Source: an uncultured Candidatus Peribacteria bacterium
GTDB taxonomy: Bacteria; Patescibacteriota; Gracilibacteria; Peribacterales; Peribacteraceae
NCBI GenBank assembly: GCA_964403335.1
Contig: CAYOFI010000004.1
Coordinates: forward strand, 36,566 to 100,565
Direction of reading: 5' to 3'
Length of the DNA stretch: 64,000 nucleotides
The translations under genes and the position numbers were made by a program. The notes beneath the pieces are model-generated. The model was not told the DNA's origin. It worked only from the letters and a program-made list of their open reading frames with translations, and ran no database searches. This document shows, piece by piece, positions 283-47,797 of this stretch (position 1 is its first letter; every line of letters starts with the position of its first letter).

Positions 283-1761
283 ATGTCAATAACCCCTGAC
301 GCACCCCCCAAAGAAGCCCCAGAAACGGGCGTTCTGGCAGGAACGGTGCACACCGTCACGATCGAGAAACTGACCTTTGGAGGGTCAGGATTGGCCCATG
401 TGGACGGTTTGCCGGTGTTTGTGGAAGACAGCATTCCGGGCCAAAACGTCCAAATCGTCATCACCAAGCGCAAGGACCGCTATGCCGAAGCGAAGGTCCA
501 GAAGGTCCTGCGCAAAGCCAAAGACGAGATTCCCGCCCGCTGCCCCCACTTCCACGATTGCGGCGGCTGCGTGTGGCAGAACCTCCCCTATAACAAGCAG
601 ATTGAATATAAAGAGAACATCGTTCGCGAGACGCTCAGTCACCTCACGCCCGTCGACGACGCACTCCGCGCGCAGCTCCCGGGCCGCGTGTTGGGAATCA
701 TCCCCAGTCCCCAGGTCTTCCACTATCGCAACAAATTGGAGATGACGTTCGGCTACACAAACATGCGCCACGAGGAGAAGGCCGGCAAAAGAATTTACTT
801 TGATGAAGGTCCGACCATCGGCTTCCACCAGCCGGGCCAGTGGCAGACGGTTCTGCCGATCGCGGAGTGCCATCTGTACGACGAGCAGCTCCCGATGTTG
901 CTGAGCCAAGTCCGTCGTTTTATGGAAGAGACGCGTTTGCCGGTCTATAACCCCAAGACTCAGAAGGGGATGCTGCGCACGCTGTTGCTTCGCCGCGGCG
1001 TGCACACCGGAGAGCAGATGATTTGCTTCTTACTCCAGGCTCGCAAAAAAGATCTGGAACCGCTCTTCCAGAGTTTCCTCCGCTCCTTCGGCGGCCGCCC
1101 GAATTTGGCTTCGCTCATGATCGTCGAACACATGGGTGTGCACGAGAAACCGGAGTTCCCCAAGATCCATACGCTCCTGGGAAAGCAGACCATCACCGAA
1201 CGACTGTTTGATCTTCAATTCGAAATCTCGCCGTTCTCGTTCTTCCAGACGAACACCTTCGCCGCCGAAAAACTCTACCGCGCCATCTCTGATGCCGCGG
1301 ATCTGAGCCTCAAAGATACCGTCCTCGACGCATACTGCGGTATGGGCACGATTGGTCAGTATCTGGCACGCTTCTGCCAGAAAGTCGTCGGTATCGAAAG
1401 CCACCCGTCGGCCATCGAGGATGCTTTGCGCTCCGCGGGCCGCAACAAAATCGGCAACATCAGTTTCTACAAAGGCCGCACGGAACAAGTGCTCCTGCAG
1501 CAGCTCAAACCCGGCGGCAAATACGCCTTCGATGTCATCGTCGTCGATCCTCCCCGCGCCGGTCTGCATCCGAAAGCCCGCGAGGCGGTGCTCGCACACA
1601 AGCCGAAGAAAATCGTCTATGTCTCTTGCAACACGGCGACGTTTGCTCGTGATTTGGGCGAATTCCTTAAGGGCGGCTACGATTTGCGCACCGTGCAGCC
1701 GGTCGATCTGTTCCCACATACGAGTCATATCGAGACGGTGGCGTTGTTACAGAGGAAATAA
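283..1761 (+). CDS. rlmD: 23S rRNA (uracil-5-)-methyltransferase, RumA/RlmD type (TRAM + Fe-S Cys cluster + class I SAM MTase)
   Basis: The 492-aa ORF carries CPHFHDCGGCVWQNL (RumA-like Cys cluster), FFQTN, DAYCGMGTIG (SAM motif I), VVDPPRAGL, YVSCNTATFARDL and a DLFPHTSHIETV C-terminus. Confidence 0.9.
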   Translation: MSITPDAPPKEAPETGVLAGTVHTVTIEKLTFGGSGLAHVDGLPVFVEDSIPGQNVQIVITKRKDRYAEAKVQKVLRKAKDEIPARCPHFHDCGGCVWQNLPYNKQIEYKENIVRETLSHLTPVDDALRAQLPGRVLGIIPSPQVFHYRNKLEMTFGYTNMRHEEKAGKRIYFDEGPTIGFHQPGQWQTVLPIAECHLYDEQLPMLLSQVRRFMEETRLPVYNPKTQKGMLRTLLLRRGVHTGEQMICFLLQARKKDLEPLFQSFLRSFGGRPNLASLMIVEHMGVHEKPEFPKIHTLLGKQTITERLFDLQFEISPFSFFQTNTFAAEKLYRAISDAADLSLKDTVLDAYCGMGTIGQYLARFCQKVVGIESHPSAIEDALRSAGRNKIGNISFYKGRTEQVLLQQLKPGGKYAFDVIVVDPPRAGLHPKAREAVLAHKPKKIVYVSCNTATFARDLGEFLKGGYDLRTVQPVDLFPHTSHIETVALLQRK

Positions 1762-1872
1762 GGCTAAGGGCTAAGGCTAAGGCCGTAGGTAATTTGCTTT
1801 GAGGATTGCGGTACACTTTTCTGCATAGCTGTGAAATTTCCATTCTTAGCCTTAACCCTTAGCCTTAGCCTT
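1761..1872. repeat. Tandem-heptad inverted repeat, family A (GGCTAAG)n ... (CTTAGCC)n with a 60-nt spacer
   Basis: The left arm aggctaagggctaaggctaaggcc (1761-1784) starts at the rlmD stop codon. The right arm cttagccttaacccttagccttagcctt (1845-1872) ends 3 nt before the rlmH ATG. Confidence 0.85.
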
Positions 1873-15520: not shown

Positions 15521-15576
15521 GGCGACAAAGAATAGCAGATTGTGGCTTGCTGTGCAGCAAGAAAAGCTGTCGTGGT

Positions 15577-15628
15577 GAGCTTGTCGAACCATGACAGCGG
15601 GGTATGCCCGTCACCCTTCGACAAGCTC
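15577..15628. repeat. REP-like palindrome (gagcttgtcgaa / ttcgacaagctc)
   Basis: A perfect 12-bp inverted repeat with a 28-nt loop overlaps the stop codon of the MerR gene. It translates to the widespread 'FDKLR' pseudo-peptide. Confidence 0.8.
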
Positions 15629-16367
15629 AGGGTGACATGCCTTTCATCGCCTTCCCGATGTACTCCTGCATCTCTTTGCCCGGCCCGCCGAATTGCGTAC
15701 TCATGTCGGGATTCTCTTCGTACATCTTCTTCATGCGCGCTTCGACTTCCGGATTCCCTTGGGTGAATGACTGCACAAGAGCCATCCATGTTTTGGCAAG
15801 TTTCCGGACGCGCGGATGTGTCGGCTTCGTCCCCGCATCCATCTCTTTCTGAACATCTGCTATCAGCGTCTGCCAGTCATTCTCTGCTGCGACGATTGCA
15901 TCACGGCCGAGTTCTTTCCGTCGAGTCTTGAATGTTTCGAGCATTTCCGGCGTGTAATAGCACTCGACTCTGTGCATCAGTTCCATCACCTGTGTCAGCT
16001 CTTCCATCGTGATCTCGTGCTTGCGCGCTTTGCTCAATCGCAAGAGTCCGTCGAGGCGTTCCAGCAGATCTTCCTCCAGCGCCAGATGCTCACGCAGTTT
16101 TCCGATCTGCATCGCAATCACGCTCTCCAGTGAAAACTGTGGATTGCCCATGCTCTCTTTGATTTGCTCCAGGGGAAATCCCATCTGCTTGAGCGAGAGG
16201 ATGATCTGTAATTTGCGAAGATCCGACGTCGAATACAGGCGATATCCTGCAGGGCTCCTGTGCGAAGGGATCAGTAGCTTGAGCTCTTCATAATGATGCA
16301 GAGTGCGGACGGTCAGGCCGGTCTTTTTGGCGAGTTCGCCGACTTTCCAGTTTGTCGTATCAGTCAT
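15627..16367 (-). CDS. MerR family transcriptional regulator with a TipAS C-terminal domain (TipAL-like)
   Basis: WKVGELAKKTGLTVRTLHHYEELKLLIPSHRSPAGYRLYSTSDLRKLQIILSLKQMGFPLEQIK, followed by a TipAS-like C-terminus. Confidence 0.9.
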   Translation of the reverse strand: MTDTTNWKVGELAKKTGLTVRTLHHYEELKLLIPSHRSPAGYRLYSTSDLRKLQIILSLKQMGFPLEQIKESMGNPQFSLESVIAMQIGKLREHLALEEDLLERLDGLLRLSKARKHEITMEELTQVMELMHRVECYYTPEMLETFKTRRKELGRDAIVAAENDWQTLIADVQKEMDAGTKPTHPRVRKLAKTWMALVQSFTQGNPEVEARMKKMYEENPDMSTQFGGPGKEMQEYIGKAMKGMSP

Positions 16368-19141: not shown

Positions 19142-19148
19142 GGAAGTG

Positions 19149-19238
19149 GAGAACTGAGAATGGAAAATTGAAAATTATGGCAGCAACTCAGATCATGATG
19201 GTACTTCCATAATTTTCAATTCTCAATTTTTCATTTTT
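19149..19238. repeat. Tandem-heptad inverted repeat (GAGAAYT/GAAAATT)4 ... reverse complement
   Basis: The arms are 19149-19180 and 19207-19238 with a 26-nt loop containing GTACTTCCAT. The right arm overlaps the AI-2E stop codon. Confidence 0.85.
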
Positions 19239-20418
19239 AATTACGAACAATTCTTGCCTTCTGCCACATCCGCACATCTTCCAAAAATATCCCGATGATG
19301 CTTGCGAGCGGAATCGAGAGCAGCAAGCCCAACACCGGGTGCACGATTTTGGGGAAGCTGACGCCCATCAGCATCGCGGCGAGGATGGCGACGGCGGAGA
19401 TATCCACCGAGTGCTTCATGATCATCGGCACGATGAAGTTGTTTTCGGCGAATTGGATCAAGTAGTACGCGGCCGCCACGACCAGCGCCCACAGGAAGCC
19501 GCCGTGCGCCAGCGCGATCATCACGCCCGGCACGGCGCCGATGAGCGGACCCACGTAGGGAATGAATTCCGTGAAGCCGGCGAGGAGTGACAACGTGAGT
19601 GCGTACGGCACGCGCAGAATGACCAGGATGACGAACGTGATCGCCGCGATCACCAGGCAGAGCAGCAGCTGTCCGCGGATCCATTGCCCCAGTTTTTGAT
19701 TGATCTGGCGGGTTTTCAGACTGATATACGGCCACATTCGTTTGGGAAACAGCCGCGTGAACCAATCCGTCAGGTGGTCGCGCTCCAGCTGCAGGAAGAA
19801 TGCGCACACCAGTACCAGCAGTAAATCCAGCGTGAAGGCCACCAGCGAACCGGCCAGTCCGGATAAGAATTGCAGCGATCCCGCTGCCAAACTGCTGAGG
19901 TATGCGCTCATTTGTTGCAGCGCGTCGGGCCCGGTAAGCGCAAGGCTGCGGAGCGCGGAACGCAGCATGATGGTGAGCCGCACGTTCATCTCCGCCGAGA
20001 GCAGAGGGAACTCTATGGTTCTTTCGGTCAGCAGACGCTGGACTTCGGTATTGGCGAGCGTCGCAATACCCCCGACCTGCTCGGCGATAACCGGTACGAG
20101 CGAGAAAATGAGAAACAGCGCCACCGCAAAAAACAGAATGTAATGCAGTAAAATGGCCAAGCTGGCCGGCACTCTCCATCTTTTCAGCAGACGCACGCCG
20201 GGGTCCATGATGGTGGCGATGAAAACGCCCAGGAAGAACAGCACGATCACGTGTTGCAGCTGGACGATAAACACCGTTCCGACGGCGATCGCCAGCACGG
20301 CCAATGTGGCCTGCACGGCGCTGATGGTGGACAGTTCGCCCGTGACCTGGCGTTTGCCATGCGTGATCGTCAACAAGGGACTGCTCTTTGCCGTTGATGC
20401 GGATTTTTGCTTCGGCAT
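19237..20418 (-). CDS. AI-2E family transporter (PerM/UPF0118)
   Basis: It has eight TM helices and ...TEFIPYVGPLIGAVPGVMIAL... The start is set at the ATG at 20418, because the longer extension is encoded by the repeat. Confidence 0.85.
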   Translation of the reverse strand: MPKQKSASTAKSSPLLTITHGKRQVTGELSTISAVQATLAVLAIAVGTVFIVQLQHVIVLFFLGVFIATIMDPGVRLLKRWRVPASLAILLHYILFFAVALFLIFSLVPVIAEQVGGIATLANTEVQRLLTERTIEFPLLSAEMNVRLTIMLRSALRSLALTGPDALQQMSAYLSSLAAGSLQFLSGLAGSLVAFTLDLLLVLVCAFFLQLERDHLTDWFTRLFPKRMWPYISLKTRQINQKLGQWIRGQLLLCLVIAAITFVILVILRVPYALTLSLLAGFTEFIPYVGPLIGAVPGVMIALAHGGFLWALVVAAAYYLIQFAENNFIVPMIMKHSVDISAVAILAAMLMGVSFPKIVHPVLGLLLSIPLASIIGIFLEDVRMWQKARIVRN

Positions 20419-20450
20419 CGCCGGAGAGGAAGGATACCGGAGAGAGGTGG

Positions 20451-20532
20451 TAGAAGGGATAGACGCCATAGACGGAATAGAGGTGTGTTCTGTACTTCTA
20501 TCGCGTCTATCCCTTCTATTCCGTCTATTTCA
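20451..20532. repeat. Tandem-nonamer inverted repeat, family C (TAGANNNNN)4 ... (TCTATNNNN)4
   Basis: The left arm is tagaaggga tagacgcca tagacggaa tagaggtgt, and the right arm is tctatcgcg tctatccct tctattccg tctatttca. The element ends 1 nt before the ABC gene stop codon. Confidence 0.85.
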
Positions 20533-22311
20533 TCACTCCCCAATAAACCCCCCTGCCTGCAACTCGTACAACTGCCGGTATGCGCCGTTCTCTTTGGCGA
20601 CCAATTCCGCATGTGTGCCTTCTTCCGCGATCTTTCCGTCTTCGATCACCAAGATACGGTCGGCTTTTTTGATGGTCGACAAGCGGTGCGCGATGACGAT
20701 GGACGTTCGGCTCTTCATCAAATATTCCAATCCCTCTTGGATGTACGATTCTGAAAGGGAGTCCAAACTGCTGGTCGCTTCGTCCAGTACAAGGATCGGC
20801 GTATCGGCCAAGATGGCGCGGGCGATGGCCACGCGCTGGCGTTCGCCGCCGGAGAGTTTCACGCCGCGTTCGCCGACGAGCGTGTCGTACTTCAGGGGGA
20901 GTTTTTCGACGAATTCATGCGCATGCGCGAGCCGTGCCACGCGTTCGATATCCTCCCTGGAAGCGCCGGGATTGCCGTACGCGATGTTCTCCGCGATCGA
21001 CCGATGAAACAGCATCGGGTCTTGCGGCACCAAGCCGATACCGCGGCGCACGCTCTCCTGCGTGACATCCGCGATATTCTGTCCGTCGATGACGATGCGG
21101 CCTTCGTTCACGTCGTAGAACCGGAAGAGGAGTTTGACGAACGTGCTCTTGCCGCCGCCGGAATGCCCGACCAAGGCGATCTTCTCGCCGGGACGGATGG
21201 TCACGGAGAAATCTTTGAAGATCCAGCGGGAAGCCGGTTCGTACCGGAAGCTCGCGTTGTCGAAGACGATCTCTCCACGCGGGACGTTCAGTGGTTTTGC
21301 ATCCGGCTTGTCCGTCACCGTGAGCGGACGCTGAGCCAAACCGACCATCTCTTCGCAGTGAGCCAGGTTGCGCAGGAAGTCGCGCAAGTTGCGCCCGATC
21401 TCGGAGAGCCTTGCCCACAGCATGCCCACGTAAAACGTCGCGATGATAAAGCTTCCCGGGGAAAATTCTCCCTTGGACCACAGCCATGCGCCCAACAGCA
21501 GCACAACGCCTTCCACGATGATCAGCGCCGTGAATTGCACGAATGTCACGAGGTTGGCGACCATCCACGTCCGCCATTGGCGATGACGCATTTCCCGCAG
21601 ATTTTCGCCATGCCGTTTGTCTTCGCGCATCTCCGTCGCGAACGATTTCACCAGCGCGTTGCCCGTGAGTGTATCGACCACGTTGGCGCTGACTTTCGTA
21701 TCCTGTTCGTCCACCCAGCTGTAATAGCGGGAGAGATACAAGTTGAGCGAGATGGAAAGCGCGCCGTAGAGGATCATGCTGACGAGCATCGCGCCCGCGA
21801 TGACGGGGGCCAGCCGGAGCAAGACGATCGTGAGACCGATGATCACGACGACCGCCGGGATGAAGTTCATCCATATGCGGTCCAGAATGCCTTCAATGGC
21901 ATCGACGCCCCTGCGGATTTTGCGCGACGTCGCGCCCGCAAACGCATTCACATGGAATCCCGTGGAGAGCCGCTGCACTTTGGCGAACACGTCGCTGTCC
22001 ATCTGCGGCATCATCCGCGTCTCGATCCAGGCCAAGATCTGCATGCCCAGTTGTTCGCAGACGTTCCAGGCAAAGGCGCAGCCCACCCCAAAGAGGATCA
22101 TCCACACCGCGTGCCAATACACCGCCGTGTCGCCCGGAGTCCCCGTGGCCACGGCATCGATCGCTTCTTTGTAGAAGAACGGTTGTGCCAGCGTCGCGAC
22201 CGTCGAACCAAGCAGCAAAATCATCATCCCCAGCAACTGCGGCAGATACCTGCGCATGTACGGCCAAATAAAGGCTGCCACCTGCCTGTGGGTGACGGGG
22301 GACTTTTCCAT
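20533..22311 (-). CDS. ABC transporter, fused permease/ATPase (MsbA-like exporter)
   Basis: It has a six-TM domain, Walker A GHSGGGKST, the signature LSGGERQRVAIARAIL and Walker B ILVLDEATS. Confidence 0.92.
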   Translation of the reverse strand: MEKSPVTHRQVAAFIWPYMRRYLPQLLGMMILLLGSTVATLAQPFFYKEAIDAVATGTPGDTAVYWHAVWMILFGVGCAFAWNVCEQLGMQILAWIETRMMPQMDSDVFAKVQRLSTGFHVNAFAGATSRKIRRGVDAIEGILDRIWMNFIPAVVVIIGLTIVLLRLAPVIAGAMLVSMILYGALSISLNLYLSRYYSWVDEQDTKVSANVVDTLTGNALVKSFATEMREDKRHGENLREMRHRQWRTWMVANLVTFVQFTALIIVEGVVLLLGAWLWSKGEFSPGSFIIATFYVGMLWARLSEIGRNLRDFLRNLAHCEEMVGLAQRPLTVTDKPDAKPLNVPRGEIVFDNASFRYEPASRWIFKDFSVTIRPGEKIALVGHSGGGKSTFVKLLFRFYDVNEGRIVIDGQNIADVTQESVRRGIGLVPQDPMLFHRSIAENIAYGNPGASREDIERVARLAHAHEFVEKLPLKYDTLVGERGVKLSGGERQRVAIARAILADTPILVLDEATSSLDSLSESYIQEGLEYLMKSRTSIVIAHRLSTIKKADRILVIEDGKIAEEGTHAELVAKENGAYRQLYELQAGGFIGE

Positions 22312-22381
22312 AAAAGAGCGCGCAGGATAGCGCAGAAGCAAGCATTGCTGCGAGGAAATAGTCGGGATTTTTTGCGGCTGA

Positions 22382-22956: not shown

Positions 22957-23409
22957 ATGCCAGTCGTCTCCCAGCTCGCTCCCGATATCGTCCTGCCTGA
23001 CCAAACCGGCGCCACGAAGCGTTTGGGGGATTTCCGCGGGTCGTATGTGCTGTTGTATTTCTATCCGAAAGACGACACGCCCGGCTGCACCATCGAATCC
23101 TGCGGTTTCCGGGATCTGCATCCGGAATTCCTGAAGCGCAATTGCATCGTGATCGGCATCAGCGCCGATGATGTGGACAGCCATAAACGTTTTGCCGAAC
23201 ATCACAGCCTGCCGTTTTCACTTCTTGCCGATGTCGACAGGCGGACGATCGACGAATACGAAACGTGGAAAGACGCGGAGAAGAAGACGGGGATCGCTCG
23301 CACGTCGTTCCTGATTGATCCCGATGGCAAGATTGTGAAGATCTATGCTGTGGGAGAAGCGAGTGTGCATCCGGCGGAAGTGTTGAGAGACTTGGACAAT
23401 CAAGGCTAA
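22957..23409 (+). CDS. bcp: Peroxiredoxin, Bcp type
   Basis: YFYPKDDTPGCTIESCGFRD active-site motif. Confidence 0.9.
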   Translation: MPVVSQLAPDIVLPDQTGATKRLGDFRGSYVLLYFYPKDDTPGCTIESCGFRDLHPEFLKRNCIVIGISADDVDSHKRFAEHHSLPFSLLADVDRRTIDEYETWKDAEKKTGIARTSFLIDPDGKIVKIYAVGEASVHPAEVLRDLDNQG

Positions 23410-23521
23410 GGACTGAGGCTAAGGCTAAGTTCGAAAGAATATATTTTTGAAGTTTGATGTACACTTTCTTCGTATTTTTCTGTGCTCCCGTTCTTAGCCT
23501 TAGCCTTTTTTCTTAGCCTTA
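23404..23521. repeat. Tandem-heptad inverted repeat, family A, with a 63-nt spacer
   Basis: The left arm is ggctaaggactgaggctaaggctaag (23404-23429) and contains the bcp stop codon. The right arm cttagccttagcc...cttagcctta (23493-23521) ends 4 nt before the next ATG. Confidence 0.85.
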
Positions 23522-27316: not shown

Positions 27317-27416
27317 CTCTCCCTGCGGGGAAGAGAGAGAATGTATGTTTTTTGTGTTTCTTCAACACGCAAACAAAACATCCAACACCCTCCTTCTCCC
27401 CGCAGGGAGAAGGAGC
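27317..27416. repeat. GC-rich REP-like inverted repeat pair with a nested AT-rich hairpin (convergent terminator region)
   Basis: ctctccctgcggggaagagag (27317-27337) pairs with cttctccccgcagggagaaggag (27394-27416), sharing a 14-nt core. An inner hairpin atgttttttgtgt / acacgcaaacaaaacat lies between them. Confidence 0.75.
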
Positions 27417-36105: not shown

Positions 36106-36462
36106 ATGAATGTGCAGCATTTCGAGAAAGGGCTTCACTATTCGGATACCGATTTGCTCGCGCTGGCGCGGAAAATCGGCAAATTGGCCACGTATTGCAA
36201 GCGCCTGAAAAACGCCGATTCCTTGATCCGTGTGGAGTCCGAAAAGCGTCCCACCCAGAAGGATCGCGACCAGGTGAAAGTGATGATCACCGTGGATTTG
36301 CCGGGTGCGCAGCTGCGCGCGGAATCGCGCAGATTGTTGGTGGTGGATGCCGTGGACCGGTGCATTGAAAAACTGGAACCGCAGATCAAGCGGTACAAGG
36401 AAAAGCGCACGGGGCGGAATCGGGCCCATCAAAAGTCCCGTTCCCGCGACCTTGCCGCATGA
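36106..36462 (+). CDS. hpf: Ribosome hibernation promoting factor / RaiA family
   Basis: MNVQHFEKGLHYSDTDLLALARKIGKLATYC...VKVMITVDLPGAQLRAESRRLLVVDAVDRCIEKLEPQIKRYKEK. The ATG at 36106 lies inside the longer tracked ORF. Confidence 0.8.
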   Translation: MNVQHFEKGLHYSDTDLLALARKIGKLATYCKRLKNADSLIRVESEKRPTQKDRDQVKVMITVDLPGAQLRAESRRLLVVDAVDRCIEKLEPQIKRYKEKRTGRNRAHQKSRSRDLAA

Positions 36463-37994
36463 GGTTCCGCCCGGCCGCCATCGGCGCGGCACTCTGCTCT
36501 CTGGTGTTGGTGCCGGTGAGTCTGTTTGCGCAACAAGAGGCGCCTGCTCCACCCGTGGCGCCGGATGTGACGGCCAGTATCATCGGGCCCGATGACGTGC
36601 CCGTGGGGCGACGCATCATTTTGGATGCCTCGGCCAGCCGCACCATCGGCAGCAACGTGCGGTATGAGTGGTATGTGGGTTCGTCGCCCGAACCCATCAG
36701 CACGACGGTCGACGCGATTTTTACGCCGGACCGCCCGGGTCCCATCGAATTCCGCTTGGTGGTGCGATCCACGGTGAACGGCGAAACGGTGGAAGATGAA
36801 GAGCGGCTCACCGTCACCGTCTTCACCCGCAAAGTGGTGGTGATCGCGGATGCCACCATCACGCAGCAAAAATTGGATGTCTTACGCCGCGCCGCGGCAT
36901 CGGGTTCCACGTACCTGCGCGTCTTGCAGTCACCCGTGTCGTCCGCAAGCAGAGGAGGGGAGGAGGCGTTGGCGGCGCTGCTCTCCGAACAGGGGGATGT
37001 GCTCTTGGATGCGGAGACGATCGTGCTGTGGACCGATGGCGTGCCGACTCCCGGTTTGTATGCGCTGCTCCATGCGGTGCAGAACAATGAGCAGTTGCAG
37101 CTGAGCATGCCGCTCCACCCATTGATACTCGCAACGGATTTGAATATGCACACGGTTGCGCGCGGAGGGAAAGGCATCATCTCCGTCTTAAAGCCGCGCC
37201 AGGCATTGGTGATGCGGCCATCGCTTTTGGAAATGCTGGTGGGAGCCAAAAGCGCCGAGGCTTTCACGCAGCAGGCCTTCCAAATCCCTTCGGCAAATCC
37301 GCTGATCCTGGACACCTCCGTCGTCCGGATTCCGTGGTATTACCCCCTCACGCATTTGACCGACGCCATGCTCGGCGCCGGAGTATCCAGCCAGACGGTT
37401 CTTCTGCTGCTCGTCCTCCCGGTCATCGCGACCATTTTGGCATTCCTCAAGCAGATCGTCGGTATCACCACATTCGGGCTGTTCACGCCCGCCATCATCG
37501 CGCTGAGTTTCTTGGCGCTGGGATGGGAAGTGGGAGTGCTCTCGCTCCTTTTCATCCTGATGACGGGCTACGCGTCGCGCACGCTCATGCGCAGACTGCA
37601 CATCCTCTACATTCCGAAAATGGCGATCATCTTGGGCATCGGCAGCTTCACGTTGTTGTTCCTTGTGGGTATCGCGGCGGTCTTCAAAGTCTATCTCAGC
37701 CACGACACGATCTTCGTGCTGCTCATCATGAGCACGCTTGTGGAAAGCTTCCTGAACGTGAAATCCGAACAAGGATTGAAATCCGCCATCTTCGCCATCG
37801 GTCAGACGATCGTGGCGGCTCTGCTCTGCGTCATGTTGGTGCAGTGGTCGCCGTTTAGGGCCCTCATCCTCGGCTATCCCGAAGTGATCTTGATCACCGT
37901 GCTCATCAACATCCTCATCGGACGATGGACGGGACTCCGGATCTCGGAATATTTCAGATTCAGGGAAGTGTTTAAGCATCTTGTTCAGGAATGA
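36459..37994 (+). CDS. Membrane protein: signal peptide, PKD-like extracellular region, and a C-terminal multi-TM domain of the '7TM usually fused to inactive transglutaminase' type
   Basis: The start overlaps the hpf stop (ATGA). It reads ILDASASRTIGSNVRYEWYV, then QIVGITTFGLFTPAIIALSFLALGW plus about 6 further helices. Confidence 0.6.
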   Translation: MRFRPAAIGAALCSLVLVPVSLFAQQEAPAPPVAPDVTASIIGPDDVPVGRRIILDASASRTIGSNVRYEWYVGSSPEPISTTVDAIFTPDRPGPIEFRLVVRSTVNGETVEDEERLTVTVFTRKVVVIADATITQQKLDVLRRAAASGSTYLRVLQSPVSSASRGGEEALAALLSEQGDVLLDAETIVLWTDGVPTPGLYALLHAVQNNEQLQLSMPLHPLILATDLNMHTVARGGKGIISVLKPRQALVMRPSLLEMLVGAKSAEAFTQQAFQIPSANPLILDTSVVRIPWYYPLTHLTDAMLGAGVSSQTVLLLLVLPVIATILAFLKQIVGITTFGLFTPAIIALSFLALGWEVGVLSLLFILMTGYASRTLMRRLHILYIPKMAIILGIGSFTLLFLVGIAAVFKVYLSHDTIFVLLIMSTLVESFLNVKSEQGLKSAIFAIGQTIVAALLCVMLVQWSPFRALILGYPEVILITVLINILIGRWTGLRISEYFRFREVFKHLVQE

Positions 37995-38000
37995 AGATCT

Positions 38001-38064
38001 TTTAGTTATTGGTTTCTGGTTTTTGGTTTCTGGTTTTAAACGAAAAACTAGAAACTAAAAACTG
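38001..38064. repeat. Tandem-heptad inverted repeat, family D: (TGGTTTY)4 ... (AAAAACT/AGAAACT)
   Basis: tggtttc tggtttt tggtttc tggtttt (38010-38037), loop aaacg, then aaaaactagaaactaaaaact. The element begins 7 nt after the 7TM gene stop. Confidence 0.8.
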
Positions 38065-40617: not shown

Positions 40618-40621
40618 TACT

Positions 40622-40690
40622 GAAAAACCAGAATCCAAAACCCAAAGGCCAAGAATCCTGGCTTTTGGTCTCTGGTCTCTGGTTTTTTGC
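40622..40690. repeat. Tandem-heptad inverted repeat, family D (between convergent stop codons)
   Basis: gaaaaaccagaatccaaaacccaaaggccaag - aatcc - tggcttttggtctctggtctctggttttttgc. Confidence 0.8.
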
Positions 40691-41393: not shown

Positions 41394-41480
41394 ATATAGC
41401 CTCCAAAAGAGGTCCCAGAGTACAAAAGTCCTGGTTCGGGGTCAATATGACTCAAATGTGAGGAAAAAGCAAAGCAGATA

Positions 41481-41543
41481 AGGCTAAGGACCAAGGCTAA
41501 GGCTAAGATTCGAACTTAGCCTTAATCCCTAGTCTTAGCCTTA
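41481..41543. repeat. Tandem-heptad inverted repeat, family A, compact form (7-nt loop)
   Basis: aggctaaggaccaaggctaaggctaag - attcgaa - cttagccttaatccctagtcttagcctta. The right arm encodes the last residues (FKAKTRD) and the stop codon of the GT2 gene. Confidence 0.85.
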
Positions 41544-42532
41544 AATCCCCATTTCCAGAAATACTGCATCGCACTCCAGAGGTGAATTCTGGCAGTTGGC
41601 TTCGTCAAAAGGCTCCAAAACCCTCCTTCACTCAGACGCGTTTTGCGGTCCGTTGCGTGTACGGAGGGGAAATAGACCACGCGTTTGCCGCTCTTCCAGA
41701 CCCGGCGGCAGAGGTCGGTATCTTCAAAAAACAGGAAAAACCGGGGATCGAAACCCCCGACGGCTTCAAAAAGATCGCTACGGATCAAGAGGCAGGCGCC
41801 GACGGCCCAATCCACGTCCCGTGCTTCACCTCGGTCATTCTTGGCATACAAGTACCGGTCGACCCGGTGCGGGAACAGACGACGGAGCGGCGTGCGTTTT
41901 ACTAACACATCGAACAATGATGGAAAGGCGCGGACAGAGTCACGGATCGTTCCATCGTCATGGACCAGTTGGGGTGCGAGGATGCCGATGGTTGGATCTT
42001 CACGCATGGCCCGAGTCATCTTTTGAAGTCCGTCGGGCTCCAGTGTGTTATCGGGATTGATGATCAGCAGAAATTCGCCCCGCGCCCGCGCGATGCCCTG
42101 CGCGTTGCCTTGTCCGTACCCGAGATTGTCCCGCGTCTCCATGATCTGCACCTTGCCCTGGCCGTCCGCCCTCACGCGGTTGCGCAAGTAGCCGATGGAG
42201 TCATCATCCGAGTGATTGTCGATCAGCAGTATCTCCATCTCCTCCGCCATCGTCTGCAGCAGCAATCCCCGCACGCAATTCCACGTGTCGATGGGACTGC
42301 GGTAATTGAGGACGACGGCGGTGACGGTGGGGCGAGAGGTGATAGAGGGGATAGAGGGAATAGACGCGATAGAGGTTACAACATCAGCCAGGTGCCTAGC
42401 GTCAATGCAAGAAGAATGCGATAGATGCCGAAGACGCTGAACGAGTGCCGTGTCACAAATTTCAAGAACCAGCGGATGCTCAGGATCGCGACGAGGAACG
42501 CGACGAGGGATCCCAGGGCCAGCATCATCCAT
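41522..42532 (-). CDS. Glycosyltransferase family 2 (start codon uncertain)
   Basis: VTAVVLNYRS...LLIDNHSDDDS...IINPDN...FFLFFEDTDLCRR. The only in-frame ATG/GTG/TTG upstream of the catalytic domain is at 42532, which overlaps uppP by 157 nt. Confidence 0.75.
   Translation of the reverse strand: MDDAGPGIPRRVPRRDPEHPLVLEICDTALVQRLRHLSHSSCIDARHLADVVTSIASIPSIPSITSRPTVTAVVLNYRSPIDTWNCVRGLLLQTMAEEMEILLIDNHSDDDSIGYLRNRVRADGQGKVQIMETRDNLGYGQGNAQGIARARGEFLLIINPDNTLEPDGLQKMTRAMREDPTIGILAPQLVHDDGTIRDSVRAFPSLFDVLVKRTPLRRLFPHRVDRYLYAKNDRGEARDVDWAVGACLLIRSDLFEAVGGFDPRFFLFFEDTDLCRRVWKSGKRVVYFPSVHATDRKTRLSEGGFWSLLTKPTARIHLWSAMQYFWKWGFKAKTRD
42341..42375. repeat. Family C nonamer repeats, single arm (GATAGAGGG GATAGAGGG AATAGACGC GATAGAGGT)
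   Basis: These are four tandem 9-mers immediately downstream of the uppP stop. They translate as IASIPSIPSIT in the GT2 frame, and I see no partner arm nearby. Confidence 0.75.
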
Positions 42533-43143
42533 TCATTTCCCGTGAAGTTCGGGGAGGTTTTCAGGAGGTCGAGACCGGTCGCCGCCATCATCGTGGGGAT
42601 CGCCAGCAAGAACGAGAACTCCACGATCGTTTTGCGGTTCACGCCCAGCAGTTCGCCGCCCACGATCGTCGCTGCCGCGCGCGACACCCCCGGCACGATG
42701 GCCAGTGACTGGCACACGCCGATCCAAAACGCCTGCTTCATCGTTACGGGTTTCCCGTCATCCGTTGCCTTGTCTCTTTTTAGATAATCAAACGCGAGGA
42801 GCGCGATGCCTCCTAAAAACAGCGCCCACAGAATCGTCGGAATGCTCTCGAACAAAAATTGCTTGATGAAGTCATGCAGCAGAAAGCCGATGACGGCCGT
42901 GGGGACAAAGGCGACGAACACGCGCAGCAGGAGTTGCCGGTCGATCAAGAGCTTTCGTCCATATAACGCCACGACCGCGAGAATCGCGCCCAGCTGGATG
43001 GCAACCTGGAAGGTTTTGAGAAACTCCGTCTCCGCCAGTCCCATCGCGCGTGCGGCGAGAATGAGGTGGGCGGTGGAGGAGATCGGGAGGAATTCGGTCA
43101 GGCCTTCGATCACTCCCAACAATATGGCATGGAGCATGTTCAT
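42376..43143 (-). CDS. uppP: Undecaprenyl-diphosphate phosphatase (BacA/UppP)
   Basis: LLGVIEGLTEFLPISSTAHLIL ... QSLAIVPGVSRAAATIVGG. Possible starts are at 43167, 43143 and 43137. Confidence 0.9.
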   Translation of the reverse strand: MNMLHAILLGVIEGLTEFLPISSTAHLILAARAMGLAETEFLKTFQVAIQLGAILAVVALYGRKLLIDRQLLLRVFVAFVPTAVIGFLLHDFIKQFLFESIPTILWALFLGGIALLAFDYLKRDKATDDGKPVTMKQAFWIGVCQSLAIVPGVSRAAATIVGGELLGVNRKTIVEFSFLLAIPTMMAATGLDLLKTSPNFTGNEWMMLALGSLVAFLVAILSIRWFLKFVTRHSFSVFGIYRILLALTLGTWLML

Positions 43144-43171
43144 AAGCAGGGGGCAGTATACGTGCAAGACG

Positions 43172-43258
43172 GGAAATCGAGGAAATCAAGGAAATCGAAG
43201 AAATCGAGGAGAAAAATATTCCTCGATTTCTTCGACGTCTTCGATTTCTTCGACGTCC
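43172..43258. repeat. Tandem-nonamer inverted repeat, family B (RGAAATCRA)4 ... reverse complement
   Basis: ggaaatcga ggaaatcaa ggaaatcga agaaatcga gga - gaaaaatatt - cctcgattt cttcgacgt cttcgattt cttcgacgt cc. The element ends 1 nt before the DoxX stop codon. Confidence 0.85.
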
Positions 43259-43663
43259 TTATTTCTTTCCCATCATCGCGTCCAGAGCCATCTTGCCGCC
43301 GCCCATGAAGAGGAGAGCGACGCAGCCGGCGAGGATTACGAGGTCGAACTCCCAGCCCGCTCCGCCTTTGCCGACGAAGGTGCCGAAGGCGTCCAGCGCG
43401 GCTTGGCCGAAGCCGGTCATCTTCATGTAGATGGCGCCGAGCATGATGATGCCGAGGCCCAGCGCGGCCCACTGCGTGAGAAGGCCGAGGATCATGGCCA
43501 GTCCGCCCAGCGGTTCGGCGATGGCGACGACGGTCATGTACCACGGAGCCTGGGGATTGAGAGGCCACTTGGCGAGGCCGTGATAGAGAAAGACGGCGCC
43601 GATGGCCAGACGGAGAGCGAGGAGCCCCCAGTCGGAGTGGCGCTTGAGCGAAACGAGAGTCAT
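43259..43663 (-). CDS. DoxX family membrane protein
   Basis: WGLLALRLAIGAVFLYHGLAKW... and four TM helices. The start is set at the ATG at 43663. Confidence 0.8.
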   Translation of the reverse strand: MTLVSLKRHSDWGLLALRLAIGAVFLYHGLAKWPLNPQAPWYMTVVAIAEPLGGLAMILGLLTQWAALGLGIIMLGAIYMKMTGFGQAALDAFGTFVGKGGAGWEFDLVILAGCVALLFMGGGKMALDAMMGKK

Positions 43664-43712: not shown

Positions 43713-44756
43713 TTAGACGCACTCTTGCAACAAACGCAACACGGCTGCTTCACCCGCTTTCAGGCCGCTGCGTCGGTGACGCACCCCGTGCAATTTGTGT
43801 TGCAGAGATTTGTTGGAGTAGCAGTCCAGGATGAAGGGATGCACGTAGCTCTTGCGGCAGACGGCGGGCGTATTGCCCAGCTTGGCCGAGACGTCCGTGA
43901 TGGCGCGGACGATGTTGCGCGTGATCTCTTTATTGGAGGCAGTCGGCGGAAATTGCGCCAGGAGCAACGCGGCGTGGACCGTGCCGGCCCATGTGCGGAA
44001 ATCCTTCGCCGTGATTTCCGTGCCGGCGATCTCGCGCAGATACGCGTTCACGTCCTCCGCGCGCACGTCGCGGATATCGCCTTTGTCGTCGATGTATTCC
44101 AATAAATCCTCCCCCGGCAGATCCCGGCAGGAGCGCAGCACGCGCGCCAAGATTTTGTCTTGGATGGAGATGTCATGGTCCTTGCCGGACTTTCCGCGGA
44201 AGCAGAACCGCACGGTGGCGGCGGAGATGTGCGCGTGGGAATTGCGCATCGTCGTCAGGCCGAACGAATCGTTTTCCTCGGCATACTCGTCGTTGCCGAT
44301 GCGAATAAGCGTTTCTTCCAGCAGGCGCACGGCGAGTGCCAAGACTTTTTGGCGGTCGAGAGCCGGGCGGCGCAGGTCTCGGCGCACGCGGCGGCGGATG
44401 CGCGGGAGAACTTCGCCGAACGGTACCATCTTGTGGTACTTGGTTTGATCGCGCGTCTTTCTCCATTGCGCGTGGTAGCGGTACTGCAGGCGTCCGCGTT
44501 TGTCGCGGCCCGTCGCTTGCAAGTGACCTTTGGGGTCCGTGCAAATCCAGACATCCGTCCACGCCGGCGGCAGGACCAGAGACCGGATGCGCTTCAGTGT
44601 CGCGGCGTCGCGCACGCGTTTGCCGTGTTGATCGCGGTAATAGACGTGTTTCAAAAACCGCACGCGCTTGATGCCCGGCGCGTGGGGGTCGCAATAGTGC
44701 AATCCCGCCTGGCGGGCGGAGAGTTCGGGTGTGGTGCGGATGGGTTTGGTGTGCAT
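43713..44756 (-). CDS. DNA topoisomerase IB (bacterial, poxvirus-like)
   Basis: GIKRVRFLKHVYYRDQHGKRVRDAATLKRIRSLVLPPAWTDVWI...GHLQATGRDKRGRLQYRYH...RFCFRGKSGK...TAKDFRTWAGT...CRKSYVHP. Confidence 0.88.
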   Translation of the reverse strand: MHTKPIRTTPELSARQAGLHYCDPHAPGIKRVRFLKHVYYRDQHGKRVRDAATLKRIRSLVLPPAWTDVWICTDPKGHLQATGRDKRGRLQYRYHAQWRKTRDQTKYHKMVPFGEVLPRIRRRVRRDLRRPALDRQKVLALAVRLLEETLIRIGNDEYAEENDSFGLTTMRNSHAHISAATVRFCFRGKSGKDHDISIQDKILARVLRSCRDLPGEDLLEYIDDKGDIRDVRAEDVNAYLREIAGTEITAKDFRTWAGTVHAALLLAQFPPTASNKEITRNIVRAITDVSAKLGNTPAVCRKSYVHPFILDCYSNKSLQHKLHGVRHRRSGLKAGEAAVLRLLQECV

Positions 44757-46739: not shown

Positions 46740-46814
46740 AGGGAAAAAGGGAAGAGAGTAGAAGAGATATGTGCCGCGACGTTCGCCGAAGAGGGGACTT
46801 ACAAGTTTTACTAA

Positions 46815-46901
46815 GGAAATCGAGGACTTCGAAGACTTCGAAGAAATCGAGGAGTACTTCCATTCCTCGATTTCTTCGATTTCCTAGATTTCTTCGATTT
46901 C
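46815..46901. repeat. Tandem-nonamer inverted repeat, family B
   Basis: ggaaatcga ggacttcga agacttcga agaaatcga gga - gtacttccatt - cctcgattt cttcgattt cctagattt cttcgattt c. The element ends 2 nt before the matrixin stop codon. Confidence 0.85.
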
Positions 46902-46903
46902 TT

Positions 46904-47797
46904 TCACCACTTGCACACTTCCACCATTTGCATCCGATCCGTCTCCGTCAGCTCACTGTTCTCCCCCGTATGCAGCCGGTACATGATCGATTGCGGATCC
47001 TCCGTGTGTTGCAGCCCCAGTGCGTGGCCGAACTCGTGAAGAAGCAAGCTTTGCAGTTCCGATACATCGTCGAACGCGAACACATCGATTCTCTCCTTGC
47101 CGTTTTCCCGTACAAATACCCCCGCCTCGTATTCGGCCCCGACACTTTGGCCGATGGTGTTGAAAGTCTCGATGGATTCATTTTGTCGTGCGGCCAGCGT
47201 ATTCAAGACCGAGACGATGCCGTTGAGCTCGGTACGCTTTTCTTCCAAGGTCTTCCCTTGCGCTTGCAATTGGGGGATGAACGCATTGATTGATTGAGCC
47301 TCTTTCGCAAAAACCGCGGACTCTTCAGGGGTGAAGCCATCGGCTTCGGCAACCGCAAGGCGCGCCGCAAAATCCTTCTTCCGCCGGTCAAAATCCTCGC
47401 CCGCCTTTGCATACGCCGCGGCTTGCGCATCGAATGTTTTTTTGACGGATTCGTAGCGTGCTTTCACGTCTTGATAGGACTGTTCTCCCTCATCCAACTC
47501 GATTCCCAATTCTTTCAGCGCATCGGCTGCTTTCTGCCGTTCGTCGTAGACGGCGGACACCGGGAAACCCGCGGGATCTTCCCGGAAGAGCTCACGCCCG
47601 CCGGATGCATTCCATTGCGCGGCCGCATCGGTCATCGCCTGATGAAACGCCGCATCGCTGATGTGAAAACGCGGATCCAGGGTACCCGCGTGGTACAACA
47701 CCGGCCGGTTGCAGGGCAGCAGGTACCGGTAGGCCGTCACTCCCGCGTAGCCCAGGAGACCGAGAGCCAGGAGCCATGCGAAGAGACGTTGCATCAT
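46904..47797 (-). CDS. Matrixin-like (M10) zinc metalloprotease, secreted
   Basis: It has a signal peptide, a coiled central region and HEFGHALGLQHTEDPQSIMY (HExxHxxGxxH plus Met-turn). Confidence 0.85.
   Translation of the reverse strand: MMQRLFAWLLALGLLGYAGVTAYRYLLPCNRPVLYHAGTLDPRFHISDAAFHQAMTDAAAQWNASGGRELFREDPAGFPVSAVYDERQKAADALKELGIELDEGEQSYQDVKARYESVKKTFDAQAAAYAKAGEDFDRRKKDFAARLAVAEADGFTPEESAVFAKEAQSINAFIPQLQAQGKTLEEKRTELNGIVSVLNTLAARQNESIETFNTIGQSVGAEYEAGVFVRENGKERIDVFAFDDVSELQSLLLHEFGHALGLQHTEDPQSIMYRLHTGENSELTETDRMQMVEVCKW

Follow-up and report, generated by a model that had tools for sequence, protein, structure and literature searches.

The window analysed here is a 64,000-nt stretch of an uncultured Candidatus Peribacteria bacterium, a member of the candidate phyla radiation (CPR) known from a metagenome-assembled genome (MAG) of 1.32 Mb in 18 contigs, with 56% G+C and an estimated completeness of 87%. 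Near the beginning of the window, the spacer between rlmD and rlmH is wholly filled by a gene-less hairpin (1759-1872), which consists of an array (GGCTAAG)n, a 61-nt spacer and the inverted array (CTTAGCC)n. The 5' array (TAAGGCTAAGGGCTAAGGCTAAGG, 1759-1782) opens with the rlmD stop codon TAA (1759-1761), and the inverted 3' array (1844-1872; TCTTAGCCTTAACCCTTAGCCTTAGCCTT) stops at 1872, with 3 nt between it and the rlmH ATG at 1876. An earlier note, made from the sequence alone, had described this arrangement, which was confirmed with respect to the arrays, the start at the stop codon and the 3-nt gap. Both arrays, and most of the other loci of the window treated below, were also picked up by Tandem Repeats Finder. 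The predicted RNA fold had an energy of -45.4 kcal/mol (z = -4.1) and was equalled by none of 200 shuffled sequences. The 61-nt interior holds a conserved core (..GCGGTACACTTTTCTGC..TTTCCAT) and could be aligned with seven other copies of the same repeat family, named family A; an interior of ~60 nt was common to eight family A copies, all eight co-oriented with the flanking genes (p = 0.008). A Logan assembly of run SRR12487045, made independently, was 100% identical over 3145 nt spanning the rlmD-rlmH element, which therefore is not an assembly artefact, an objection that the note had raised against its own proposal.

The genome was surveyed for elements of the same design. Our catalogue comprised 211 hairpins with a stem of at least 18 bp, and in 105 of these long hairpins the periodicity of the arms exceeded the 99th percentile of random genome segments, so that a second objection, low-complexity noise, was not borne out. 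Community detection on shared 7-mers assigned at least 143 tandem-unit hairpins to eight unit families of 6-31 copies each, a minimum figure, given that neither family D locus of the window was caught by the strict detector; the rest of the genome is thus far from devoid of such elements. Family E (AATTGAAAA) has 31 copies, family B (GAAATCGAG) 22, families A (AAGGCT/AAGGATT) and C (ATAGACGGG) 21 each, family G (GAAACCGAG, with an AATTRCACC subfamily) 17, family F (GAGATCAAG) 15, family D (TGGTTTY) 10 and family H (ATTGTTAT) 6. Dinucleotide shuffles of ~760 kb of related genomic sequence, this genome not included, produced no periodic-arm hairpin save in one AT-rich genome, and the design recurred in dozens of MAGs from other studies. 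The suggestion that a constant design with variable units marks a genuine class was upheld.

PF05635 genes between matching arrays

Five long-range pairs of a purine array and a pyrimidine array, 360-470 nt apart, were found in the genome, and each enclosed one gene of family PF05635 and nothing else. PF05635 is the 23S rRNA intervening-sequence (IVS)/four-helix-bundle family (S23p). In Coxiella burnetii, the 23S rRNA IVS (helix 45) is a 428-nt selfish element with an open reading frame (ORF) of this family and a 28-bp terminal stem; its 5' end is made of tandem heptamers (GACAGAT), the number of which varies between strains, RNase III cuts at the first repeat, and the function of the encoded protein is unknown (PMC4990558). 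PF05635 ORFs have also been found in rRNA insertions of CPR bacteria (PMC11270868). The five enclosed genes (E-values 1e-28 to 4e-10) are all the PF05635 genes of the genome, and they lie between arrays of five different arm types: C8:55226, which carries an in-frame stop, in type A, C7:70271 in type C, C9:25297 in type E, C12:36115 in type F and C5:80235 in the AATTRCACC subfamily of G. The arm type of the last (AATTRCACCGAAGAAACAAGAAGCA, grouped with family G) is the only weakly periodic one of the five. Each of these arm types is also present on 8-31 gene-less hairpins, in which a loop takes the place of the gene, and the whole family C cassette folds with its arrays as a long terminal stem. 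All 143 gene-less and five gene-bearing copies lie between or beside protein-coding genes and none in rRNA, the assembly being without an rRNA gene. The association with PF05635 had been overlooked in the earlier note, as those genes lie beyond the window.

The link between gene and arms recurred in other genomes. Among 30 PF05635 genes of the taxonomic family, drawn from 30 other genomes, 24 were flanked by inverted repeats of at least 18 nt and 21 by tandem-unit arms, against 5 and 0 of 55 controls (Fisher test, 3e-13). For 30 genes from other CPR families the figures were 22 and 18, against 6 and 0 of 57 controls (4e-11), and for 12 plasmid genes from outside the CPR (11 cyanobacterial, one of Gemmatimonadota) 9 and 7, against 4 and 1 of 24 controls (6e-4). 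Five genes of genome G040, taken without controls, all had inverted repeats, built from five different units. Some cyanobacterial plasmid genes were wedged in unrelated operons, namely between cas6 and cas4 in Pseudanabaena and Anabaena sp. 90, between cas10 and cmr3 in Picosynechococcus, and between two ribonucleotide reductase genes in Nostoc edaphicum, where the gene is bracketed by (TAGGGAG)6 ... (CTCCCTA)5. Tandem-unit arrays flanked three of these four operon-borne genes (L229:1492-1851, L238:1483-1851, L234:1501-1857 and L231:1486-1854), the inverted repeat of Anabaena sp. 90 being non-periodic. Across genomes, protein similarity (identity x coverage) was 52 for genes with common arm units versus 36 otherwise (permutation p = 0.0002). 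Protein and arm type thus co-vary, and therefore gene and arms are inherited or transferred together.

With a probability that we put at roughly 0.6, an IVS-like hairpin cassette has multiplied in this Peribacteraceae genome, and the element at 1759-1872 belongs to its gene-less copies, which number at least 143. The short hairpins would be non-autonomous relatives of the gene-carrying cassettes, spreading and being lost as units, and the four-helix-bundle protein would be the likeliest unit-specific partner of its own arms. Once transcribed, the 18-58-bp stem, with its A/G-rich 5' arm and U/C-rich 3' arm, could be a substrate for RNase III, by analogy with the 23S IVS of Coxiella, and the cell might in that case put up with the element, or exploit it between cistrons as a structure for processing or for 3' ends, with coding sequence left uninterrupted. 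RNase III is encoded in the genome. Its gene (C1:185789-186161) is otherwise intact, with an ERLEFLGD motif, and looks frameshifted in six-frame searches because a 10-N scaffold gap interrupts it.

Several observations weigh against this interpretation. No movement of the elements was observed; that RNase III cuts the stems, or that expression is affected, is proposed by analogy. No pair of filled and empty sites between close strains was found: an exact-protein look-up gave a single identical contig, a second one gave nothing, and a metagenome scan for close strains returned only distant topoisomerase IB homologues. The family listings revealed no target-site duplication or direct repeat at element boundaries. 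No known recombinase or catalytic gene was seen within the cassettes, a search among multi-copy proteins for a transposase yielded only CheY-like receivers and ordinary paralogues, and the genome contained no PF13366 nuclease cassette as a partner for the 9-nt families. No gene-bearing copy was present in the 87%-complete assembly for families B, D and H, nor for those copies of G that are strictly periodic (GAAACCGAG). Genome G040, the only other one with family A units, had no family A-armed gene in the five of its seven copies examined, and genome G049 had three PF05635 genes yet no gene-less hairpin in the 100 kb sampled, so that presence of the gene alone does not predict amplification. 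Finally, the loops of families A, C and F were unlike the interiors of their gene-bearing counterparts, with which they have the arm units alone in common. The idea that short-element loops are deletion remnants of gene-bearing interiors was accordingly rejected for lack of similarity in these three families, for which a series from parent to derivative by deletion is not supported.

These dissimilar loops, together with the families B, D and H that lack a gene, are also what would be expected if the hairpins came first, the arrays being structures of the host or independently spreading ones and PF05635 a separate mobile gene that settles in their loops, as it does in rRNA helices. The excess of gene-less over gene-bearing copies, ~30 to 1, and the finding that every gene copy within a genome sits in a different arm family fit this main rival as well. 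It is nevertheless doubtful, since protein similarity follows arm type across genomes, which would require lineage-specific homing to unit types, and since the arrays abut the start and the stop of the PF05635 gene very tightly in most of 72 loci. In addition, the short copies of the AATTRCACC subfamily have the arm-adjacent interior sequence in common with the gene-bearing copy of that subfamily.

Arm structure, gene junctions and termination

The stems of the tandem-unit hairpins measured 18-58 bp, with arms built as arrays of 6-9-nt units. The 5' arms were 71% purine (A 41%, G 30%) and the 3' arms 72% pyrimidine (T 45%), the final 10 nt of the 3' arm containing 4.7 T versus a background of 2.5. 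Purine-first polarity, which reads the same on both strands, characterised 131 of the 143 elements and, among relatives, 20 of 25 independent unit types (p = 0.004), whereas ordinary hairpins did not show it; in families A, B, C and F, the purine array preceded the pyrimidine array in 58 of 58 pairs, with 0 reversed. Watson-Crick pairing of the arms was only ~83%. No co-evolution of the two arms within elements was detected in families E, B, A and C, where the element's own 3' arm ranked at ~0.5 among the copies of its family. The own 3' arm thus pairs no better than those of other copies, indicating that pairing stems from a family-wide vocabulary of units and not from local compensation. The correlation of array length between the two arms was inconsistent, and no sense-strand excess of G.U over A.C, as a sign of selection at the RNA level, was found (151 vs 141). 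A loop motif, CTTCCA/TGGAAG, was enriched 5-fold (29 loops vs 5.8 expected), a minor effect mainly of family E, whose unit resembles the motif. Three further ideas were dropped: telomere-like 3'-end addition as the source of array polarity and mimicry of Shine-Dalgarno or anti-Shine-Dalgarno sequences, as no observation required them, and stop codons in all frames as the purpose of 7-nt units, several of which contain no stop.

The positions of the hairpins were analyzed against a home-made gene model of 1252 genes (90% coding). About one junction in nine (~11%) was occupied by a tandem-unit hairpin. The 130 elements located between two called genes were distributed over 28 convergent, 87 co-directional and 15 divergent junctions, compared with 233, 769 and 232 junctions of these kinds genome-wide; divergent spacers were thus under-represented (15/130 elements vs 232/1234 junctions, p = 0.018). 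The median distance from the hairpin edge to the adjacent stop codon was 1 nt (interquartile range -5.5 to 11), and that to the adjacent start 27 nt. Family H, with 8-nt units, breaks both class rules: its pyrimidine-first, T-rich arm leads, and four of its six copies lie in divergent, promoter-side spacers (copies for example at C4:20674-20764 and C3:67852-67942).

In the window, the note had listed ten loci of one architecture in families A to E. The family assignments were correct, and every listed locus lay 0-8 nt from a stop codon, or overlapped one, in our gene model. Calculation of folding energies revealed strong hairpins at nine of the ten loci (z from -4.1 to -8.5); the tenth, given as 42341, did not conform. 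It is a solo family C array of 4.6 units (42335..42375) that abuts the stop of a BacA (Pfam PF02673) family gene (42376-43167, minus strand), and since it is a single array without an inverted partner (z = 0.1), a half element, it is not a hairpin. The family E hairpin at 19145..19242 (7-nt units AATTGAR/AATGGAR, stem 36, loop 26, z = -5.3) overlaps with its right arm the stop of gene 19237-20469 (minus strand). The stem of the family C hairpin at 20439..20539 (9-nt units ATAGASGNN, z = -6.7) overlaps the stop codon (20533-20535) of gene 20533-22341 (minus strand), the tandem array proper ending at 20528-20530, 2-4 nt short of it. At 23402..23521, a family A hairpin with a 63-nt interior and the family core (GATGTACACTTTC; z = -7.1) contains in its first unit the stop of gene 22957-23409, and the right arm of another family A hairpin, 41479..41545, which has a short loop of 13 nt (z = -5.4), contains that of a glycosyltransferase gene (41522-42274, minus strand).

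The two family D hairpins have opposite orders. That at 38000..38063 is pyrimidine-first, with (TGGTTTY)n followed by (RAAACYA)n (z = -6.5), and begins ~8 nt past the stop of gene 36459-37994; that at 40621..40689, with (RAAYCCA)n followed by (TGGTCTC)n (z = -6.1), lies between convergent genes, separated by 4 nt from a stop at 40617 and by 5 nt from that of L25 at 40695. Family B is represented by a hairpin of 9-nt units (GAAATCRAR; z = -7.7, -50.3 kcal/mol) that spans from 3 nt after the start codon of the BacA-family gene (43167) to the DoxX stop at 43259 (43171..43259), and by one at 46813..46904 (z = -8.5), whose right arm reaches up to the stop codon of gene 46904-47797 (minus strand). 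All ten loci fall within the first 47 kb; between 47000 and 64000, a stretch including a part of lower G+C from ~58.5 kb, no tandem-unit hairpin was detected. A search of the window against Rfam at gathering thresholds matched a tRNA and nothing else. The window further contains, at 43713-44756 (minus strand), a bacterial type IB topoisomerase (PF01028 + PF21338), present here in a CPR genome, whose metagenome relatives are only 42-58% identical.

Closeness to stop codons, depletion from divergent spacers, U-rich 3' arms and the prevalence of purine-first polarity would all be accounted for if selection at gene ends, in a lineage that lacks Rho, had favoured the hairpins as factor-independent terminators or as stabilisers of mRNA 3' ends, tandem units being the easiest mutational route to long stems. 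In line with this, neither this genome nor any of 30 relatives, 27 of which reach a completeness of at least 90%, had a Rho RNA-binding domain (PF07497), and canonical terminators, made of a stem and a U-tract, were barely above expectation (30 found vs 21.6 +/- 4.5 by shuffling). However, as the note had stated, no U-tract follows the hairpins: at least six T in the next 10 nt were present in 4.9% of cases, the same as in intergenic background. Thus, of the traits of an intrinsic terminator, the hairpins show the position, after stop codons and away from promoters, and not the U-tract; and even with regard to position, 25 of the 87 co-directional junctions offer no space for a promoter, the following start codon (starts corrected) being at most 15 nt from the end of the 3' arm. 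Moreover, no unusual structure was present at 85% of gene 3' ends. Given the proximity to the next start in those 25 junctions, the lack of a U-tract and of a G.U excess, and the absence of compensation between arms, it is unlikely that a classical terminator role explains the elements in general. The broader reading, with stabilisers included, is also improbable, as it leaves unexplained the patchy occurrence of identical units between genera and the presence of the same arms around a gene.

Distribution among relatives

Comparison of orthologous junctions, which the note had proposed as a test of mobility, was carried out for the region downstream of rlmD in 79 related species. Many species had no spacer at all, and 11 of the 79 had a periodic-arm hairpin within 35 nt of the rlmD stop. 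Each of these 11 was made of a different unit. The rate of ~14% is comparable to the general occupancy of junctions in the genome under study (~11%) and the units all differ; therefore, the site itself is not conserved. In several other Peribacteria species (L004, L044, L048, L062, L067, L071), the rlmD-rlmH junction is filled by a hairpin of another kind, TGTCRTGGTGAGCTTGTCGAA...TTCGACAAGCTCACCATGACA, which belongs to one of two further hairpin repeat families of the genome that are non-periodic; it is found in the window at 15568-15637 and in 12 copies genome-wide. The second non-periodic family, based on CCCTTCTCCCTGCGGGGAGAAGGAGGG, has 19 copies, with one at 27318-27410 of the window.

Three of the four genomes sampled from this taxonomic family carried 6-12 hairpins per 100 kb and the fourth carried none; in four genomes from other families of the class, the density was 0-2 per 100 kb. 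Exact 16-17-mer patterns of families A, B and E were searched in 101 genomes of the taxonomic family and were present in 2, 16 and 54 of them, respectively. Counts ranged from 0 to 79 per genome in a burst-like manner, differing even between congeners, and the patterns were also encountered in other genera; reversed-pattern controls were near 0. Such patchy counts are the behaviour of spreading repeat families and not of structures grown independently at each site, in agreement with the note's proposal that the elements spread like small mobile repeats. Because the 16-17-mers are patchy across genera, the arms do not co-evolve and PF05635 genes are bracketed by the same arrays, the hairpins are not private terminators grown in place.

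The same patterns bear on the view that the hairpins are a non-mobile by-product, in which slippage-prone minisatellites and template switching build inverted arrays site by site, with neither an element nor a function. Variation of unit number between copies, the incomplete pairing of the arms, the many different units among relatives and the difference in unit number between Coxiella strains (PMC4990558) are compatible with such a process. By contrast, the recurrence of identical 16-17-mers, 14-79 times in a genome and also in genera other than this one, with reversed controls near 0, the conserved interiors of family A and of the AATTRCACC subfamily, and the strict association with one gene family are not, and this account is disfavoured as very improbable.

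Mobilization of the hairpins as a system of repetitive extragenic palindromes (REP/REPIN) by the RAYT-type Y1 transposase of the genome is largely refuted: the genome does have a RAYT-like gene (HUH and YIHQNP motifs), and REPs resemble the hairpins in their intergenic location, their folding and their scarcity in divergent spacers (PMC3733652, PMC3116915), but the repeat that flanks this gene is a GC-rich REP of its own (GGGGAGCGGGCCTTCGGCCCGCGG, 3+1 copies) without tandem units, the RAYT gene of G011 is also flanked by a GC-rich REP, and RAYT copy number does not track hairpin density, as in G037, with 0 RAYT and 7 hairpins per 100 kb. The RAYT gene (HCHLLLH, YIHQNP) is located at C3:84615-85076 (L166:1435-1896), with homologues in 0-7 copies in relatives, and three copies of GGGGAGCGGGCCTTCGGCCCGCGG flank it at C3:84573-84596, 85066-85089 and 85164-85187, a repeat of which the rest of the genome is nearly free.

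A 20-nt palindrome, GTTCCA-N8-TGGAAC (often CGTTCCA..TGGAACG), was observed beside all five PF05635 cassettes (L241:37-56, L243:112-131, L244:129-148, L242:79-98, L245:616-635) and beside the RAYT gene (C3:84497), among ~30 sites genome-wide. A T-run follows it in four of the five cassette-adjacent copies, that at the C12 cassette lacking it. This palindrome may be a separate REP-like element, the terminator of the cassette or its landing site.

Known systems and implications

The note had not recognised the elements as a described class, but the idea of an undescribed one was not supported for the bare architecture. Gene-less inverted heptamer arrays near ORF ends are in print for Xanthomonas, where GGGAATC arrays form ~70 inverted (convergent) pairs per genome, are ~90% intergenic, lie much nearer to the upstream ORF end than to the next ORF, in some cases overlapping stop codons, and have been read as G-quadruplex motifs (PMC4692102). 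In addition, a tandem-heptamer stem is already part of the 23S rRNA IVS of Coxiella (PMC4990558), which, with the Xanthomonas arrays, is the closest precedent. What is new is the occurrence outside rRNA, mostly without a gene, in many unit families including those of 8 and 9 nt, in a CPR lineage, and with matched sets of gene and arms.

The Peribacteria elements resemble the ORF-bearing 23S IVSs of Coxiella and Leptospira in having the same gene family in the loop and a long inverted-repeat stem (PMC4990558), and the hairpins have the terminal stem expected of an IVS (18-58 bp, z from -4 to -8.5). Unlike IVSs, they lie between protein-coding genes and not in rRNA, are mostly gene-less, those of the window having no ORF in the loop, reach a copy number two orders of magnitude higher, and comprise at least eight unit types in one genome, units of 8 and 9 nt included. 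Whereas 23S IVSs are excised by RNase III, such processing of the Peribacteria elements would follow by analogy. With the Xanthomonas arrays they have in common gene-less convergent pairs of short-unit arrays that are intergenic and nearest to the upstream ORF end. However, Xanthomonas GGGAATC and Nostoc GGGGAYT arrays have one G-rich unit per genome and were not linked to a gene family by their authors (PMC4692102), whereas the Peribacteria units (GGCTAAG, GAAATCGAG, AATTGAAAA) are purine- and A-rich, form many families and contain no G-runs as a G-quadruplex would demand.

Short tandemly repeated repetitive (STRR) and TAACTGA-type heptamers of Beggiatoaceae and cyanobacteria are direct arrays located mostly just upstream of start codons; in a Beggiatoaceae genome one set among 170 is inverted, and the arrays have been proposed as translational regulators (PMC4679880; bioRxiv 10.1101/2022.06.06.494920). 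They are likewise intergenic arrays of 7-nt units with patchy phylogeny and unknown function, but those of Peribacteria are paired in inverted order (58 vs 0 in families A, B, C and F) and hug stop codons. REP/REPIN-RAYT systems also consist of high-copy intergenic hairpin families that follow genes and are paired with a single-copy gene flanked by the same repeat, but REPs are GC-rich palindromes of 20-40 nt without tandem units and their partner is a Y1 HUH transposase (PMC3116915, PMC3733652); the Peribacteria partner protein is a four-helix bundle without known catalytic activity. Finally, like MITEs, which derive from DNA transposons and are non-autonomous, the hairpins are short gene-less copies sharing inverted ends with a few longer gene-carrying ones, with a burst-like and patchy occurrence. 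Unlike in MITEs, there is no transposase, no target-site duplication was seen, the ends are tandem-unit arrays and PF05635 is the only gene between matching ends.

Two questions that are decades old, the role of the PF05635/S23p protein and the reason for intergenic arrays of short tandem heptamers, are joined by these elements. A tentative extension, which we consider possible without holding it probable, is that PF05635 proteins are sequence-specific readers of their own tandem-unit arms, in which case an array of 6-9-nt units would be read by a protein that forms a ring. Gene and arms would constitute a class of self-propagating cassettes in bacteria at large, be it in rRNA helices, at operon junctions or within cas operons, with gene-less copies explaining much of the heptamer-repeat DNA of the STRR type and of Xanthomonas GGGAATC. 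In the limited literature covered, no paper was found that ties PF05635 to such arrays beyond the Coxiella observation.

For annotation of CPR genomes, the elements matter because of their overlap with stop codons, the direct contact with start codons that some of them have, and the spurious ORF extensions that result from them. Their number also means that a streamlined, ultra-small genome tolerates a heavy load of repeat elements. The link between gene and repeat is cleaner here than in the rRNA cases, with five genes in five arm types, each of which is amplified as gene-less hairpins, and five matched pairs of gene and repeat in one 1.3-Mb genome make the function of both PF05635 and the repeats directly testable. 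If the proteins do read their own arms, nature would offer no clearer test set than this Peribacteraceae genome, with its five pairs and 8-31 gene-less targets for each.

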